64,000 nt of DNA from Eledone cirrhosa. Lineage: Eukaryota. Made by a program: the position numbers and the translations under genes. Below, one piece after another: positions 6,887-63,945 of this stretch. The stretch lies in contig OZ024764.1 of the NCBI GenBank assembly GCA_964016885.1, positions 5,270,001 through 5,334,000 of the forward strand, read 5' to 3'. The first letter of the stretch is position 1; each line of letters begins with the position of its first letter. Under the pieces are notes generated by a model that was not told the origin of the DNA, searched no databases, and worked only from the letters and a program-made list of their open reading frames with translations.

Positions 6887-6928
6887 GAGACTTGATATGG
6901 AGAGAGATCTTTTATACTTCGATTATAG
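6887..6928 (+). CDS. Candidate micro-exon, 42 nt, phase 2-2: RLDMERDLLYFDY
   Basis: tttaactatattttttgtaatcacAG|gaga...ttatag|GTAAGT. Length is divisible by 3. Phase 0 has TGA. Confidence 0.7.
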
Positions 6929-9812: not shown

Positions 9813-9845
9813 CACCAATCATTCCTTCGCTTACAAGAAATTTAT
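9813..9845 (+). CDS. Candidate micro-exon, 33 nt, phase 2-2: TNHSFAYKKF
   Basis: tttaactatttttttctcattacAG|cacc...tttat|GTAAGT. Confidence 0.75.
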
Positions 9846-15197: not shown

Positions 15198-15239
15198 GAC
15201 TGATACAGAGGAGGGTACCGCTCCAGAAAATAATGACGA
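15198..15239 (+). CDS. Candidate micro-exon, 42 nt, phase 2-2: TDTEEGTAPENND
   Basis: attttttgtaatcacAG|gact...gacga|GTAAGT. Phase 0 is closed. Confidence 0.72.
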
Positions 15240-15551: not shown

Positions 15552-15596
<45 letters not shown>

Positions 15597-15815
15597 TAAG
15601 TTAAAAATGTACATTTACATATGCATACTGAAATACTAGTGTGTATATGAATACACACACGTATACATATGTAGGTGTAACAAGTCTTTCACTGGTTGCT
15701 TTACTGTGAGCAACCCAGCTATTCCGTATGTAAACACACAGACAAACCGGTTTTTAGAGTCATACTGGTTTTCGGGGGAACACCTTCCCTCTATTCTCCA
15801 GAAAGTCAGACAAGG

Positions 15816-15860
15816 AATATTGAACTAGTTTCGTTGTTGTTACAACTCATCAGCAATATT
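15816..15860 (-). ncRNA. Minimal type I hammerhead ribozyme motif
   Basis: Reverse complement of the 16546-16590 motif. Confidence 0.75.
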
Positions 15861-16545
15861 TACCTATCTACCGGCCCCTCTGGAGAATTGTAAAAGCACA
15901 TATCGTTATATGCTTTTTCTATGAAAATTAGTAGTGGGCAGACTAATTTGCATAGAGTGTGAGTACGCACCGGTTCAGCGGAGACGATAAAAACAAATAA
16001 CAAAACGAAATTAAATTTCGTTTCGTTTGTAACTCACTTTTGTATGACTGACGCTTAAACAATTAAGTTAAAAATGTACATCTACATATGCATACTGAAA
16101 TACTAGTGTGTATATGAATACACACACGTATACATATGTAGGTGTAACAAGTCTTTCACTGGTTGCTTTACTGTGAGCAACCCAGCTATTTTGTATGTAA
16201 ACACACAGACAAACCGGTAGCTGGGTTGCTCACAGTAAAGCAACCAGTGAAAGACTTGTTACACCTACATATGTATACGTGTGTGTATTCATATACACAC
16301 TAGTATTTCAGTATGCATATGTAGATGTACATTTTTAACTTAATTATTTAAGCGTCAGTCATACAAAAGTGAGTTACAAACGAAACAAAATTTAATTTCG
16401 TTTTGTTATTTGTTTTTATCGTCTCCGCTGAACCGGTGCGTACTCACACTCTATGCAAATTAGTCTGCCCACTACTAATTTTCATAGAAAAAGCATATAA
16501 CGATATGTGCTTTTACAATTCTCCAGAGGGGCCGGTAGATAGGTA

Positions 16546-16590
16546 AATATTGCTGATGAGTTGTAACAACAACGAAACTAGTTCAATATT
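16546..16590 (+). ncRNA. Minimal type I hammerhead ribozyme motif
   Basis: AATATTG-CTGATGA-GTTG(taacaa)CAAC-GAAA-CTAG-TT-CAATATT: 7-bp stem I, intact core, 4-bp stem II, palindromic minimal stem III and a GUU cleavage triplet. Confidence 0.78.
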
Positions 16591-17012
16591 CCTTGTCTGG
16601 CTTTCTGGAGAATAGAGGGAAGGTGTTCCCCCGAAAACCAGTATGACTCTAAAAACCGGTTTGTCTGTGTGTTTACATACAAAATAGCTGGGTTGCTCAC
16701 AGTAAAGCAACCAGTGAAAGACTTGTTACACCTACATATGTATACGTGTGTGTATTCATATACACACTAGTATTTCAGTATGCATATGTAGATGTACATT
16801 TTTAACTTAATTGTTTAAGCGTCAGTCATACAAAAGTGAGTTACAAACGAAACGAAATTTAATTTCGTTTTGTTATTTGTTTTTATCGTCTCCGCTGAAC
16901 CGGTGCGTACTCACACTCTATGCAAATTAGTCTGCCCACTACTAATTTTCATAGAAAAAGCATATAACGATATGTGCTTTTACAATTCTCCAGAGGGGCC
17001 GGTAGATAGGTA

Positions 17013-17057
17013 AATATTGCTGATGAGTTGTAACAACAACGAAACTAGTTCAATATT
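17013..17057 (+). ncRNA. Minimal type I hammerhead ribozyme motif (467 bp after the previous copy)
   Basis: Identical to 16546-16590. Confidence 0.78.
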
Positions 17058-17389
17058 CCTTGTCTGGCTTTCTGGAGAATAGAGGGAAGGTGTTCCCCCG
17101 AAAACCAGTATGACTCTAAAAACCGGTTTGTCTGTGTGTTTACATACGGAATAGCTGGGTTGCTCACAGTAAAGCAACCAGTGAAAGACTTGTTACACCT
17201 ACATATGTATACGTGTGTGTATTCATATACACACTAGTATTTCAGTATGCATATGTAGATGTACATTTTTAACTTAATTGTTTAAGCGTCAGTCATACAA
17301 AAGTGAGTTACAAACGAAACGAAATTTAATTTCGTTTTGTTATTTGTTTTTATATATATATATATATATATATGACTCTGTCTCTTATA

Positions 17390-17657: not shown

Positions 17658-18010
17658 TTCAAGGTTTATGAAGTTAGATGAACATCTTCAAAGTCCTCCC
17701 ATATTCGCCTCGTCTAATATGCGTTCTTGTACCTGATTATTTCCCCCAAATCTCCTGGGATGTTATAAACCATGATGGCTACCTATCTCACAATTTCTCT
17801 CCTGCCCACCCCCTCATACCACCATAGTCTATTCGACCAATCAAACCTCAGAAACATGTCCCCACCCATTACCAACCCCAACAAACTGCCATTACTACTA
17901 CTTCTACTTTTCTTCTAGCCCTTACCAGCCCCAACAAACCCTGACATTATTACTACTATTGTCCTTCTAGCCATGGGCTGAGGATAAATGGGGCTACCCC
18001 AAATTAATAA

Positions 18011-19050
18011 ATGAATATGAATCCGCAAGTTACCAAGCACCCATGCAAAGCTTTAATTCAGAGACAGGAAGCATACACACCCCACTGCAAAAATTCACCC
18101 TTTACCACGAATGGTGGCAAATGCCCAAAACTCCGAGTTGGAACCATCAATGTAAGCACAATGAAAGGAAGAGCAGGAGAAATTGTAGAGATGCTAGAGC
18201 GAAAGAAAATTGATGTATGCTGTGTGCAAGAGACTAGATGGAGAGCAGAGTCCGCTGGAGTCCTTGCAGGCAGAAGTCAGTGCTACCAATTTGTCTGGGT
18301 AGCAAATGACAACAGGATGGGAGGTGTAGCTATCCTATTAGCTGACAAATGGGTAGATAAGGTAATCTCAGTGAACAGGGTGAATGCAAGAATAATGAAA
18401 CTTGGACTAGTCCTGAATAAAACAATTGCCACAATAATATCAGCTTACGCACCCCAATTGGGGTTGCCAGCTGACTATAGCGGGGAATTTAGTTTAGAGG
18501 TCGGTGTCCACCAGGGCTCTGTTCTTAGCCCACTCCTGTTCGTTAAAGTATTGCAAGCAATAATGGCGGTGATTATGACCGGATGCCCATGGGAACTCCT
18601 ATATGCGGATCATCTCACACTTATAGCCGAATCTATGGTGGAACTATACTTGCTCAGTATGTAGGAAAGGAGTAGGCTGGCTGCAAAAGGTTTTCCCCTC
18701 AAAATGAAAAGCAGACTGTATGATGTGGGTATACGAATAGCAATGTTACATAGTAGTGAAACCTGGGCGCCGTCTGTGGAAGACTTGCATAGATTAGAAA
18801 GAAACGAAGCCTGCATGCTCCGATGGATGTGTAATAGTAATATACGCAAACGGCAAAGCATAAATGAATTGAGAGAGTGACTGAGCATAAGAGGAATGAA
18901 ATGCTGTGTGCAGGAGAGGATGTTGCATTGGACATGTGATGCGTATGAAGGATGACAGCTGTATAAAAAGGTGTAGAGCAGTAGAAGTCGATGGAAGCCG
19001 TGGAGTGGGGAGACCCAAGAAGAGCTGGGATGAGGTGATAAAAGCCGGAC
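18011..19050 (+). mobile_element. Deleted RTE LINE copy (unit 2)
   Basis: Near-identical to 24-1050. Confidence 0.9.
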
Positions 19051-19476: not shown

Positions 19477-20840
19477 TATAGGGTAGGTTACCATAGGGCA
19501 GGTTACTGTAGGGTAGGATACTGTCTGGTAGGTTACCATAGGGTAGGTTACTGTAGGGTAGGTTACTGTAGTGTAGGTTACTGTAGGGTAGGTTACTATA
19601 GGGTAGGTTACTGTAGGGTAGATTACTCTAGGCTAGGTTACCATAGGGTAGGTTACTGTAGTGTAGGTTACCATAGGGTAGGTTACCACAGAGTAGGTGA
19701 CCATAGGGTATGTTATTATAGGGTAGGTAACTGTAGGTTAGGTTACTGTAGGGTAGGTTACCTTATGGTAAGTTACTATAGGGTAGGTTACCATAGTGTA
19801 GGTTACCTTATGGTAAGTTACTATAGGGTAGGTTACCATAGGGTAGGTTACCTTATGGTAGGTTACTTTATGGTAAGTTACTATAGGGTAGGTTACCATA
19901 GGGTAGGTTACCTTATGGTAAGTTACTATAGGGTAGGTTACCATAGTGTAGGTTACCTTATGGTAAGTTACTATAGGGTAGGTTACCATAGGGTAGGTTA
20001 CCTTAGTGTAGGTAAGAATAGGGTAGGTTACCATAGGTTAGGTTACTGTAGGGTAGGTTAGCATAAGGTAGGTTACCATAGGGTAGGTTACTGTAGGGTA
20101 GGTTACCATAGGGTAGGTTACTGTAGGTAGGTTACCGTAGGTTAGGTTACTGTAGGGTAGGTTAACATAGGGTTGGTTACCATAGGTTAAGTTCATATAG
20201 GTTGTTACCATATGGTAGGTTACTGTAGGGTAGGTTGCTATAGGGTAGGTTATCGTAGAGTAGGTTACCATAAGGTAGGTTACCGTAGGGTAGGTTACTA
20301 TAGGGTAGGGTATCATAGGATAGGTTACCATAAGGCAGGTTACCATAGAGTAGGTTACCTTAGGGTAGTTTACTATAAGATAGGTTACCATAGTGTAGCT
20401 TACCATAGGGTAGGTTGTTACCATAGGCAAGGTTACTATAGGGTGGGTTACCATAGGGTAGTTTATGATATGGTTGGTTACCATAGTGTAGGTTACTATA
20501 ACATAGGTTACCATAGTGTAGGATACCTTAGATTAGGTTACCACAGGATAGGTTACTGTAGGTTAGGTTACCATAGGTTAGGTTAGCAATGGGTAGGTTA
20601 CTATAGGTTGTTACCATAAGGTAGGTTACTGTATGGTGGGTTACCATAGGGTAGGGTACCATAAAGTAGGTTATTATAGTGTAGGTTACCTTAGGATAGG
20701 TAACCATAGGGTAGGTTACTATGGGGTAAGTTACCATAGGGTAGGTTCCCATAGGGTAGGTTAACATAAGCTAGGTTACCTCAGGGTAGGTTACCATACC
20801 ATAAAGTAGGTTACCATAGGTTTGTTAAGGTTAGGCTAGG
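19477..20840. repeat. 15-bp minisatellite (second block in this unit at ~22306-22837)
   Basis: Direct reading. Confidence 0.97.
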
Positions 20841-24337: not shown

Positions 24338-24367
24338 GATATGCTTCACTAATATAAAGAAATTGAT
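24338..24367 (+). CDS. Candidate micro-exon, 30 nt, phase 2-2: ICFTNIKKL
   Basis: tatttttctcattacAG|gata...ttgat|GTAAGT. Phases 0 and 1 both contain TAA, so only phase 2 is open. Confidence 0.75.
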
Positions 24368-27062: not shown

Positions 27063-27095
27063 CACCAAACCCTTTACCAAGTACGAGAATATTAT
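27063..27095 (+). CDS. Candidate micro-exon, 33 nt, phase 2-2: TKPFTKYENI
   Basis: ttttctcattacAG|cacc...attat|GTAAGT. Confidence 0.75.
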
Positions 27096-28875: not shown

Positions 28876-28917
28876 GACTGATACAGAGGAGGGTACCGCT
28901 CCAGAAAATAATGACGA
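28876..28917 (+). CDS. Candidate micro-exon, 42 nt, phase 2-2: TDTEEGTAPENND
   Basis: Identical to 15198-15239 with the same splice signals. Confidence 0.72.
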
Positions 28918-31338: not shown

Positions 31339-32627
31339 TATAGGGTAGGTTACCATACGGTAGGGTACTGTAGGGCAGGTTACCATAGGGCAGGTTACTG
31401 TAGGGTAGGATACTGTCTGGTAGGTTACCATAGGGTAGGTTACTGTAGGGTAGGTTACCTTGGGTAGGTTACTGTAGTGTAGGTTACTGTAGGGTAGGTT
31501 ACTGTATGGTAGATTACTCTAGGCTAGGTTACCATAGGGTAGGTTACTGTAGTGTAGGTTACCATAGGGTAGGTTACCACAGAGTAGGTTACCTTATGGT
31601 AGGTTACCTTATGGTAGGTTACCATAGGGTAGGTTACCTTATGGTAAGTTACTATAGGGTAGGTTACCATAGTGTAGGTTACCTTATGGTAAGTTACTAT
31701 AGGGTAGGTTACCATAGGGTAGGTTACCTTAGTGTAGGTGAGAATAGGGTAGGTTACCATAGGTTAGGTTACTGTAGGGTAGGTTACCATAAGGTAGGTT
31801 ACTGTAGGGTAGGTTACCATAGGGTAGGTTACTGTAGGGTAGGTTACCATAGGGTAGGTTACCATAGGGTAGTTTACCGTAGGTTAGGTTACTGTAGGGT
31901 AGTTTACCGTAGGTTAGGTTACTGTAGGGTAGGTTAACATAGGGTATGTTAGCATAGGGTTGGTTACCATAGGTTAAGTTCATATAGGTTGTTACCATAT
32001 GGTAGGTTACTGTAGGGTAGGTTGCTATAGGGTAGGTTATCGTAGAGTAGGTTACTATAAGGTAGGTTACCATAAGGTAGGTTACCGTAGGGTAGGTTAC
32101 TATAGGGTAGGGTATCATAGGATAGGTTACCATAAGGCAGGTTACCATAGAGTAGGTTACCTTAGGGTAGTTTACTATAAGATAGGTTACCATAGTGTAG
32201 CTTACCATAGGGTAGGTTGTTACCATAGGCAAGGTTACTATAGGGTGGGTTACCATAGGGTAGTTTATGATATGGTTGGTTACCATAGTGTAGGTTACTA
32301 TAACATAGGTTACCATAGTGTAGGATACCTTAGATTAGGTTACTGTAGGTTAGGTTACCATATGGTAGGTTACCATAGGTTAGGTTAGCAATGGGTAGGT
32401 TACTATAGGTTGTTACTGTATGGTGGGTTACCATAGGGTAGGGTACCATAAAGTAGGTTATTATAGTGTAGGTTACCTTAGGATAGGTAACCATAGGGTA
32501 GGTTACTATGGGGTAAGTTACCATAGGGTAGGTTCCCATAGGGTAGGTTAACATAAGCTAGGTTACCTCAGGGTAGGTTACCATACCATAAAGTAGGTTA
32601 CCATAGGTTTGTTAAGGTTAGGCTAGG
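31339..32627. repeat. 15-bp minisatellite (second block at ~34093-34624)
   Basis: Direct reading. Confidence 0.97.
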
Positions 32628-44257: not shown

Positions 44258-44299
44258 GACTGATACAGAGGAGGGTACCGCTCCAGAAAATAATGACGA
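44258..44299 (+). CDS. Candidate micro-exon, 42 nt, phase 2-2: TDTEEGTAPENND
   Basis: Identical to 15198-15239 with the same splice signals. Confidence 0.72.
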
Positions 44300-46754: not shown

Positions 46755-48219
46755 TATAGGGTAGGTTACCATACGGTAGGGTACTGTAGGGTAGGTTACC
46801 ATAGGGCAGGTTACTGTAGGGTAGGATACTGTCTGGTAGGTTACCATAGGGTAGGTTACTGTAGGGTAGGTTACTATAGGGTAGGTTACCTTGGGTAGGT
46901 TACTGTAGTGTAGGTTACTGTAGGGTAGGTTACTATAGGGTAGGTTACTGTAGGGTAGATTACTCTAGGCTAGGTTACCATAGGGTAGGTTACTGTAGTG
47001 TAGGTTACCATAGGGTAGGTTACCACAGAGTAGGTGACCATAGGGTATGTTATTATAGGGTAGGTAACTGTAGGTTAGGTTACTGTAGGGTAGGTTACCT
47101 TATGGTAAGTTACTATAGGGTAGGTTACCATAGTGTAGGTTACCTTATGGTAAGTTACTATAGGGTAGGTTACCATAGGGTAGGTTACCTTATGGTAGGT
47201 TACCTTATGGTAAGTTACTATAGGGTAGGTTACCATAGGGTAGGTTACCTTATGGTAAGTTACTATAGGGTAGGTTACCATAGTGTAGGTTACCTTATGG
47301 TAAGTTACTATAGGGTAGGTTACCATAGGGTAGGTTACCTTAGTGTAGGTAAGAATAGGGTAGGTTACCATAGGTTAGGTTACTGTAGGGTAGGTTACCA
47401 TAAGGTAGGTTACTGTAGGGTAGGTTACCATAGGGTAGGTTACTGTAGGGTAGGTTACCATAGGGTAGGTTACTGTAGGTAGGTTACCATAGGGTAGTTT
47501 ACCGTAGGTTAGGTTACTGTAGGGTAGGTTAACATAGGGTATGTTAGCATAGGGTTGGTTACCATAGGTTAAGTTCATATAGGTTGTTACCATATGGTAG
47601 GTTACTGTAGGGTAGGTTGCTATAGGGTAGGTTATCGTAGAGTAGGTTACTATAAGGTAGGTTACCATAAGGTAGGTTACCGTAGGGTAGGTTACTATAG
47701 GGTAGGGTATCATAGGATAGGTTACCATAAGGCAGGTTACCATAGAGTAGGTTACCTTAGGGTAGTTTACTATAAGATAGGTTACCATAGTGTAGCTTAC
47801 CATAGGGTAGGTTATCATAGGCAAGGTTACTATAGGGTGGGTTACCATAGGGTAGTTTATGATATGGTTGGTTACCATAGTGTAGGTTACTATAACATAG
47901 GTTACCATAGTGTAGGATACCTTAGATTAGGTTACCACAGGATAGGTTACTGTAGGTTAGGTTACCATAGGTTAGGTTAGCAATGGGTAGGTTACTATAG
48001 GTTGTTACCATAAGGTAGGTTACTGTATGGTGGGTTACCATAGGGTAGGGTACCATAAAGTAGGTTATTATAGTGTAGGTTACCTTAGGATAGGTAACCA
48101 TAGGGTAGGTTACTATGGGGTAAGTTACCATAGGGTAGGTTCCCATAGGGTAGGTTACCTCAGGGTAGGTTACCATACCATAAAGTAGGTTACCATAGGT
48201 TTGTTAAGGTTAGGCTAGG
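46755..48219. repeat. 15-bp minisatellite (second block at ~49685-50098)
   Basis: Direct reading. Confidence 0.97.
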
Positions 48220-51597: not shown

Positions 51598-51627
51598 GAA
51601 CACCACTAATTTCTCCGAAAAATGTAT
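51598..51627 (+). CDS. Candidate micro-exon, 30 nt, phase 2-2: NTTNFSEKC
   Basis: tatttttctcattacAG|gaac...tgtat|GTAAGT. Phase 0 has TAA. Confidence 0.75.
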
Positions 51628-54331: not shown

Positions 54332-54361
54332 TCCCACAACTACTACTTCCATGAAATTTAT
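54332..54361 (+). CDS. Candidate micro-exon, 30 nt, phase 2-2: PTTTTSMKF
   Basis: tttttttctcattacAG|tccc...tttat|GTAAGT. Phase 1 has TGA. Confidence 0.75.
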
Positions 54362-60499: not shown

Positions 60500-60541
60500 G
60501 ACTGATACAAAGGAGAGTACCGCTCTAGAAAAGAATGAGGA
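60500..60541 (+). CDS. Candidate micro-exon, 42 nt, phase 2-2: TDTKESTALEKNE
   Basis: tttaactatattttttgtaatcacAG|gact...gagga|GTAAGT. Phases 0 (TGA) and 1 (TAG) are closed. Confidence 0.75.
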
Positions 60542-62982: not shown

Positions 62983-63945
62983 TATAGGGTAGGATACTGT
63001 AGCGTAGGTTACCATAGGGCAAGTTACTGTAGGGTAGGTTACTATAGGGTAGGTTACCATAGGGTAGGTTACTGTCTGGTAGGTTACTGTAGGGTAGGTT
63101 ACTGTCTGGTAGGTTACCATAGGGTAGGTTACTGTATGGTAGGTTACTGTAGGGTAGGTTACTGTATGGTAGGTTACCATAGGGTAGGTTACTGTAGGTT
63201 AGGTTACTATAGGGTAGGTTGCGATAGGGTATGTGACCATAGCGTAGGTTACTATAGGGTAGGTTACCATAGGGTAGGTTACTACAGAGTAGGTTATTAT
63301 AGGGTAGGTTACCATAAGGTAGGTTATTATAGGGTAGGTTACCATAGGGTAGATTACTATAGTGTAGGTTACCATAGGGTAGGTTACCATAGGGTAAGTT
63401 AACTCAGGGTAGGTTACTATAGGGTAGGTTACCATGGGGTAGGTTACCATAGGCTATATTATCATATGGTAGGTTACGGTAGGGTAGGTTACTATAACAT
63501 AGGTTACCATAGGGTAGATTACTATAGGGTAGGTTACCATAGGGTAGGTTACCATGGGGTAGGTTACCATAGGCTATATTATCATATGGTAGGTTACTAT
63601 ACGGTAGGTTACTGTAGGGTAGGTTACCATAAGGTAGGTTACTGTAGGGTAGGTTACCATAGGGTAGGTTAAGGTAGGGTAGGTTACTATAACATAGGTT
63701 ACCATAGTGTAGATTACCTTAAATTAGGCTACCATAGGGTAGGTTACTATAACATAGGTTACCATAGTGTAGGTTACCATAGGGTGGCTTACCATGGGTT
63801 AGGTTACTATAGGGTTGGTTGCCATAGAGTAGGTTACCATGGAATAGGTTGCCATAGGGTATGTTACCATACCATAGGGCTGGTTATCATAGGGTAGGTT
63901 ATTATAAGGTAGGTTACCATATGTTTGTTAAGGTTAGGCTAGGCT
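62983..63945. repeat. 15-bp minisatellite, same variant order as 1478-2455
   Basis: Direct reading. ORF 62953-63180 equals ORF 1448-1675. Confidence 0.97.

Follow-up and report, generated by a model that had tools for sequence, protein, structure and literature searches.

A recent retrozyme insertion in the Eledone cirrhosa genome, likely made by a borrowed Penelope-like enzyme acting at two internal sites

How does an element that consists of a 467-nt unit alone, without the reverse transcriptase/GIY-YIG reading frame of an autonomous Penelope-like element, come to lie as two outward-facing arms inside a (TA)n microsatellite? The question arises from 64,000 nucleotides of the Eledone cirrhosa assembly (3.0 Gb; contig OZ024764.1, positions 5,270,001 to 5,334,000), called the window here, which sits in an array of units of ~12–18 kb. 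Positions 15592–17353 hold 3.8 near-identical units (unit-to-unit identity 99.4–99.7%, tandem period 467 bp, local GC 0.38) with three type I hammerhead motifs (Table 1). Unit position 1 is window 16546 throughout. An earlier note on this DNA had described tandem 467-bp monomers with a strand switch inside (TA)n and had located the three hammerheads; the sequence confirms both. Comparison of the unit with the local Penelope-like reading frame gave no credible protein match. Our reading, in which we have considerable confidence, is that the element is a recent copy of a non-LTR retrozyme, likely inserted through a borrowed Penelope-like reverse transcriptase/endonuclease by a two-site mechanism.

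Table 1. Features of the insertion and its surroundings, in window positions
Feature	Position	Strand	Remarks
Putative 42-nt micro-exon (cag...gtaagt)	15198..15239	+	352 bp upstream of the insertion
(TA)n target microsatellite, left flank	15554..15592		Run uninterrupted in paralogous array units
Left (inverted) arm	15592..16218	-	1.35 units, positions 110 to ~270; sense 3' end outward, stop ~269–272 ('short' end)
Type I hammerhead motif, copy 1	15816..15860	-	
Strand switch	16218..16218		5'-truncated arm ends (unit positions 110, 140) joined with 1-nt overlap
Right arm	16218..17353	+	2.43 units, positions 140 to 341; sense 3' end outward, stop 341 ('long' end)
Extended helix around hammerhead copy 2	16522..16609	+	16522–16528 pairs with 16603–16609; 6/7 pairs change on both sides between families
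Single complete 467-nt unit	16546..17012	+	
Type I hammerhead motif, copy 2	16546..16590	+	Stem I 7 bp, CUGAUGA, stem II 4 bp with 6-nt loop, GAAA, palindromic ACUAGU
Type I hammerhead motif, copy 3	17013..17057	+	
'Tail', ~70 nt spanning both fixed end points; inferred recognition site of the reverse transcriptase	17285..17353	+	Contains a 13-bp hairpin, 17313–17342, also in family B
(TA)n target microsatellite, right flank	17354..17372		

In the 157.6 kb around the window, three of 11 array units carry the same insertion and eight have an empty (TA)n site, so the earlier statement that it is present in unit 1 only holds within the window and fails over the longer span. Across 1,762 bases, one paralogous array copy has four differences; another copy is short of a unit. 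Six sequencing runs of unrecorded kind, none of them listed as RNA, contain the stretch, and contigs from four of the six have many variant copies.

The pattern CTGATGA-N4-30-GAAAC occurs three times in the insertion against 0.20 expected, a count reached in one of 100 shuffles, and a complete type I hammerhead is found in consecutive units. The comparison with Rfam hammerhead models that the earlier note had proposed gave a split answer. A scan of the window insertion returned no match at the gathering threshold, while by E-value all three motifs match the whole Hammerhead_HH9 model (RF02275) at 38.6–39.9 bits (cut-off 52; E 4e-8 to 9e-8). The match takes in the gatag/cuuguc extension of stem I, in agreement with the extended stem described before. 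The likeness to Hammerhead_HH9 consists of a full-length match, the extended stem I, an internal loop and a 6-nt loop 2; the motifs differ from it in scoring 12–13 bits under the gathering cut-off, in lacking the 5-nt loop 3 and in having U at N17, and Hammerhead_HH9 is a conserved intronic motif whereas the window hammerhead belongs to a multicopy mobile element. Matches to miRNA families in the same scan were rejected, being far under the cut-off and arising from the inverted junction and AT-rich hairpins.

Folding of the 45-nt core is weak (z -1.6) and that of the 101-nt extended form good (z -3.6); an intermolecular stem III duplex is predicted at -6.6 kcal/mol. Since the palindromic ACUAGU cannot close within a monomer, a dimer would be needed, as had been proposed. 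The cut triplet is GUU in the window family and GUC or GUA in sister families; going by standard hammerhead numbering, we take the cut of copy 2 to fall after the GUU at 16583. GUU is a poorer hammerhead cut site than GUC. The hammerhead is predicted to be a weak, dimer-dependent ribozyme. The earlier label 'minimal' has to be replaced. Cervera and de la Pena define the minimal form (min-HHR) by the absence of helix III/loop 3, a long helix II and a short helix I, and the canonical metazoan type I form by an unstable palindromic helix III, this form being thought to cleave as a dimer (PMC4209133). Here stem I has 7 bp plus its extension, stem II has 4 bp and the palindromic CUAG is there, so that under the definitions given in that paper the motif is a canonical metazoan type I hammerhead with a short palindromic helix III and not a min-HHR. 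Among Xenopus retrozymes, eight of nine dimers were reported as uncleaved in vitro (bioRxiv 10.64898/2026.07.22.740005).

The locus itself may be part of a gene. An intronic position of the insertion is suggested by stretches with conserved splice-site motifs that recur on its plus strand: putative micro-exons of 42 nt and 30/33 nt lie on this strand at 6887–6928, 9813–9845, 15198–15239, 24338–24367 and 27063–27095, with further ones at 28876–28917, 44258–44299, 51598–51627, 54332–54361 and 60500–60541. They have constant splice-site flanks and highly variable content over an array of at least 157 kb, and some contain stops in the likely frame. The earlier note had suggested that two sense hammerheads could cleave the host pre-mRNA. 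When the first 1,300 nt of the plus transcript are folded, the hammerhead at 16553 is predicted to pair with the inverted arm, which leaves one free dimer-dependent motif, and the host gene is proposed from splice-site motifs only; cleavage of the pre-mRNA is therefore unsupported. Each array unit also has a 15-bp tandem repeat of 60–95 copies (1478–2431, 19478–20798, 31340–32585, 46756–48177 and 62984–63921), which in neighbouring units is open as 5-residue repeats, YHRVG/YCRVG on the plus strand and GNLPY on the minus strand. At ~17960–18600 (+) lies a fragment of a LINE-type AP endonuclease frame that is repeated in array units (L031, L098, L101, L103, L105), and a 1,040-aa relative of this frame is inserted into a retrozyme copy in L070.

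Judged from its sequences, the window family is large and young. Its 31-nt core has 5,196 exact matches genome-wide (control 0), and a looser pattern allowing A or C at the cut site has 31,089 further matches (control 1), which brings a single lineage to over 36,000 hammerhead motifs within one animal genome. The family is dispersed and multicopy, in forms from monomers to multimers. A subfamily, A', is ~87% identical to the window family (family A) and has GUC; family B is ~66% identical, with units of roughly 420–500 nt and GUA. Family B (L052:3380–5401 (-); L136–L165) is ~6 times commoner than the window family and has a similar two-end anatomy; its hammerhead has a CUGAYGA core and a U-U mismatch at the base of stem II, as described for axolotl HHR_Amex2. 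In L091:2910–5124, L042 and L043 some array units carry hammerhead-core substitutions (alternate units in L091), which have spread by local duplication. The octamer ATGCAAAT at window 16920–16927 (+), unit positions 375–382, lies within the block ACTCAC...TATGCAAATTAG.CTGC, which families A and B both keep directly beyond the long end; the octamer is a possible promoter element.

The earlier note had asked for conservation of the core and covariation of the stems among genomic copies, and both were found. In nine aligned copies, which represent only ~3–4 lineages and are the same sequences from which the structure was named, both partners have changed in 12 of the 19 predicted pairs, in a compensatory way between families, and 94.7% of cells are paired; none of 500 shuffles scored as high, and slid controls gave 27–43%. 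All nine retain the palindrome ACUAGU and, bar one variable position, the core. Among the youngest copies 12 substitutions fall in the whole motif where 22.5 are expected (p 0.019; one region of the seven tested) and four in the catalytic core where 6.0 are expected (p 0.54), so that protection of the core is not significant. Only this substitution test was used; earlier region-wise variant rates, biased because 26 of the 65 loci were picked by exact hammerhead match, were set aside.

Insertions were mapped at 65 loci, comprising the window, the 38 loci of best identity and the first 26 exact-core loci of contig C1; L031, a duplicate of the window's insertion, was excluded from the counts. The arms almost always end at two different fixed points ~70 nt apart, one per arm. 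One long end (338–342) and one short end (262–273) are found at 42 of the 44 two-armed loci, the other two being L063, where two insertions are fused at the hairpin, and the irregular L076. The outer ends lie nearly always against (TA)n. The remaining 21 loci look single-armed (13 long, eight short); in five of them an opposite arm with the other type of end is present in short or deleted form. Exact junctions with (TA)n number 1,817 genome-wide for the long end and 523 for the short end, the latter being the forward count alone as the reverse count is inflated by overlapping matches. Among the C1 junctions listed (100 long, 62 short), whose loci partly overlap the mapped set, 27 of 29 pairs are mixed; of the others, an apparent long/long pair is two separate insertions and L245 is a true short/short insertion. 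In family B the two ends are 58 nt apart, and they are mixed at all five loci where both could be called (of 17 loci).

The inner ends behave differently from the outer ones. Their truncation points are scattered over the unit, with one of 113 falling within 3 nt of the predicted cut against 1.7 expected; 84 of the 113 arms are longer than one unit, and the longest has 13. The 39 arm junctions comprise 25 with an overlap of at least 1 nt, four that are blunt and 10 with extra bases. Linear cleaved monomers were rejected as a template, since inner ends do not lie at the cut site and most arms exceed one unit.

What the template was can be read in part from variants among the units. At positions 136–137, both arms of the window's insertion have GG in their outermost unit and AA in the one that follows. 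Variants run in phase from the outer ends in the window and in L034, L042 and L049, while in L054 one variant is out of phase between the arms; the phase is anchored at the outer ends and not at the centre, where a cruciform would pair. A rare substitution is common to both arms in 11 of 27 two-armed loci, so the two arms have the same source. This is explained most simply by a single RNA that comprises at least two different units and is copied from two sites within the same unit.

The classic retrozyme cycle, in which hammerheads release 467-nt monomers that a host ligase closes into circles, each insertion then arising as the enzyme rolls round one monomer circle, is the strongest competitor, though to our minds a doubtful one. 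Circular RNAs have been demonstrated for coral, mussel and axolotl retrozymes (PMC7229834), and the unit folded as a circle reaches -145.8 kcal/mol against -95.9 +/- 6.3 for 60 shuffles (z -7.9), which predicts strong self-pairing. The lack of a pile-up of inner ends at the cut site fits a circle, and so do the eight of 27 two-armed loci with a rare substitution in every covering unit of both arms and the ~18 almost identical units of L033. A homogeneous source array would, however, explain homogeneous arrays equally well, and the cycle has to contend with a GUU triplet and a stem III that cannot close in the monomer. A single monomer circle does not explain the GG/AA pattern of the window, nor the similar patterns in L034, L042 and L049. 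The window copy looks to have been templated by RNA of at least two different units, and for homogeneous insertions, L033 among them, a monomer circle may have served.

Rolling-circle copying is not proved by long or periodic arrays, as duplication and loss can be seen at the DNA level: in L091, L095 and L042 the period-2, -3 and -4 blocks either show internal boundaries or are confined to one arm. Dimer or tetramer circles behind period-2 and -4 arrays were dropped in view of these internal boundaries and of a 13-nt insertion in L034 that is absent from its outermost unit. RNA editing of the template was also rejected, as there is no excess of A>G over T>C (44 versus 40), and shared variants at positions 145–150 in L082, L084, L088 and L092 were ignored as alignment artefacts.

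A single priming event on RNA might also yield one long and one short end. A run starting at the long end would make a U-turn, copy its own cDNA and be resolved at a fixed point 70 nt short, and shared variants would keep their phase relative to the ends; palindromic junctions occur at a few loci (L064, L087, L060, L084), and self-priming has been proposed for Penelope (PMC3846280). We think such folding back improbable. At most loci the truncation points of the two arms lie at different unit positions that bear no relation to each other, and it is often the short-end arm that is longer (L034, L042, L059), which is impossible for a copy of the first arm unless slippage occurred. Eight loci have a short-end arm and little or no long-end arm, and both start sites are used on RNA in vitro (PMC11167929). 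Least credible of all, and in our judgement barely tenable, is spread as a satellite or foldback element at the DNA level, through recombination among (TA)n runs, with the hammerhead a dead remnant of a Penelope terminal repeat: arrays do gain and lose units in DNA after insertion, the core is without significant protection in young copies and Li et al. favoured local tandem amplification of terminal repeats (bioRxiv 10.64898/2026.07.22.740005), but the outer ends are fixed while inner truncations are random, single insertions are dispersed into empty (TA)n sites, a family encoding a reverse transcriptase has matching anatomy, and stems change in a compensatory manner between families only ~66% identical.

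That reverse transcriptase-encoding family belongs to the same genome. A 738-aa reading frame, P0001, adjoins one retrozyme copy, and its family, which we take from its motifs to be Neptune-like, has many uninterrupted frames of ~820 aa. Pfam gave no name for P0001 and only a sub-threshold RVT_1 match for the protein in L087; a PDB search with the Penelope-like protein gave no meaningful match, and four database relatives (31–42% identity) are without names. Insertions of the P0001 family have two ends 83 nt apart, downstream of their own hammerhead, with (TA)n beyond both, and have one end type per arm at 11 of the 13 loci where an inverted arm could be seen. This Penelope-like family (L106–L135) is very abundant, and its hammerhead has a long stem II and a palindromic AUGCGCAU; it is a candidate source of the enzyme for in vitro work.

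The earlier note had suggested looking for linkage of the monomer to Penelope reading frames. No homology to families A and B was found in the terminal repeats of five Penelope-like families, sampled by protein query out of tens of thousands of candidates and with two of the five repeats incompletely resolved; all matches between families A/B and Penelope-like loci are neighbouring retrozyme insertions or simple-repeat similarity and were discarded. The hammerheads of the sampled families, where found, have different stems. As none of the five families is a homologous autonomous element, the partner is proposed from the shared insertion anatomy only. Three Penelope-like families have in common a CGGTYGAGC motif just before the start of the reading frame (L121:1451–1465, L232:2119–2131, L237:1990–2002), and the antisense strand of family B has a similar word.

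Biochemistry of a related enzyme bears on this anatomy. Poseidon protein, once purified, makes nicks in both strands of AT-rich DNA and extends them, and its cDNA begins at two internal RNA sites that delimit the tail, which explains the Penelope tail; hammerhead cleavage is not required, uncleaved RNA being the main substrate (PMC11167929). A typical Penelope-like insertion has an inverted 5'-truncated copy and a 30–40 bp tail at one end (PMC3846280, PMC8557442).

The window element fits the non-LTR retrozymes, a described class, and the earlier description of a recent, non-autonomous, hammerhead-bearing element of the retrozyme/Penelope-like kind is supported. With the metazoan retrozymes, as presented in PMC7229834 and bioRxiv 10.64898/2026.07.22.740005, it shares short non-coding tandem units of GC under 45% with strong self-pairing, a single canonical type I hammerhead in each unit, its helix III short and palindromic, thousands of copies and co-occurrence with Penelope-like elements. 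Its 467-nt unit exceeds the 170–400 nt of the 2020 paper (PMC7229834) and lies within the 51–972 of the 2026 preprint. It differs from retrozymes as those texts describe them in its two-armed insertions with two fixed ends in (TA)n. The word 'inverted' is absent from the text of PMC7229834, and in the preprint and the review PMC7761336 it occurs only in a reference and 'tail' is absent; in the main texts of freely readable papers we found no description of two-armed, two-ended retrozyme insertions or of the window family, and Repbase-type annotations may exist.

The closer parallel in insertion anatomy is with endonuclease-bearing Penelope-like elements (Poseidon PAc, Neptune/Naiad/Chlamys, Adineta Penelope). 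They too have an inverted 5'-truncated copy, a tail at one end only, an AT-rich or (TA)n target and a hammerhead upstream of two fixed ends near a stem-loop. Unlike these elements, the window element has no reading frame, its tail is ~70 nt and not 30–40 nt, its family's arms reach 13 whole units and its hammerhead is canonical, not minimal. Non-autonomous Chlamys elements such as MRC1 likewise insert in multiple copies arranged head to tail, and are mobilised by a Penelope-like element, but they share 3'-end sequence with autonomous families, which is seen here with none of the five families, and the Chlamys group is without canonical hammerheads (PMC8557442).

Under the two-site mechanism that we prefer, the enzyme, probably as a dimer, would bind the hairpin region of the retrozyme RNA and nick both strands of a (TA)n run. 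Each nick would prime reverse transcription at its own internal site, unit positions ~341 and ~270, and the two cDNAs would extend toward one another across several units and then be joined, usually at short microhomology. The template would likely be several uncleaved or re-ligated units, as a multimer or circle, with both arms likely derived from the same RNA; once inserted, arrays also gain and lose units in DNA. Against the mechanism stand the short/short insertion L245, a spacing of ~70 nt that exceeds the printed 30–40 nt tail, and hammerheads that score below the Rfam cut-off. We put at about even chances the more specific proposal that each insertion is the footprint of one dimeric Penelope-type enzyme on one multimeric or circular RNA, acting at two internal sites with one subunit per strand and guided by a conserved hairpin rather than a shared terminal repeat.

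Since the class is known, the element itself is ordinary, and its value is as a test system for integration. The case for Penelope mobilisation of animal retrozymes has so far been built on terminal-repeat similarity and co-occurrence, and the later steps of Penelope integration await validation. In this genome, young 467-nt insertions in their thousands bear the tail signature of Penelope, each arm having its own single start site, and they lie alongside intact elements with reading frames that follow the same rule. Exact start positions, a candidate binding hairpin and the target sequence are now given for an in vitro test, including that of a circle versus an uncleaved multimer as template. 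If the dimeric-enzyme footprint is true, the rule of one long and one short end, together with the phase anchored at the outer ends, would be direct genomic evidence of how animal retrozymes integrate.
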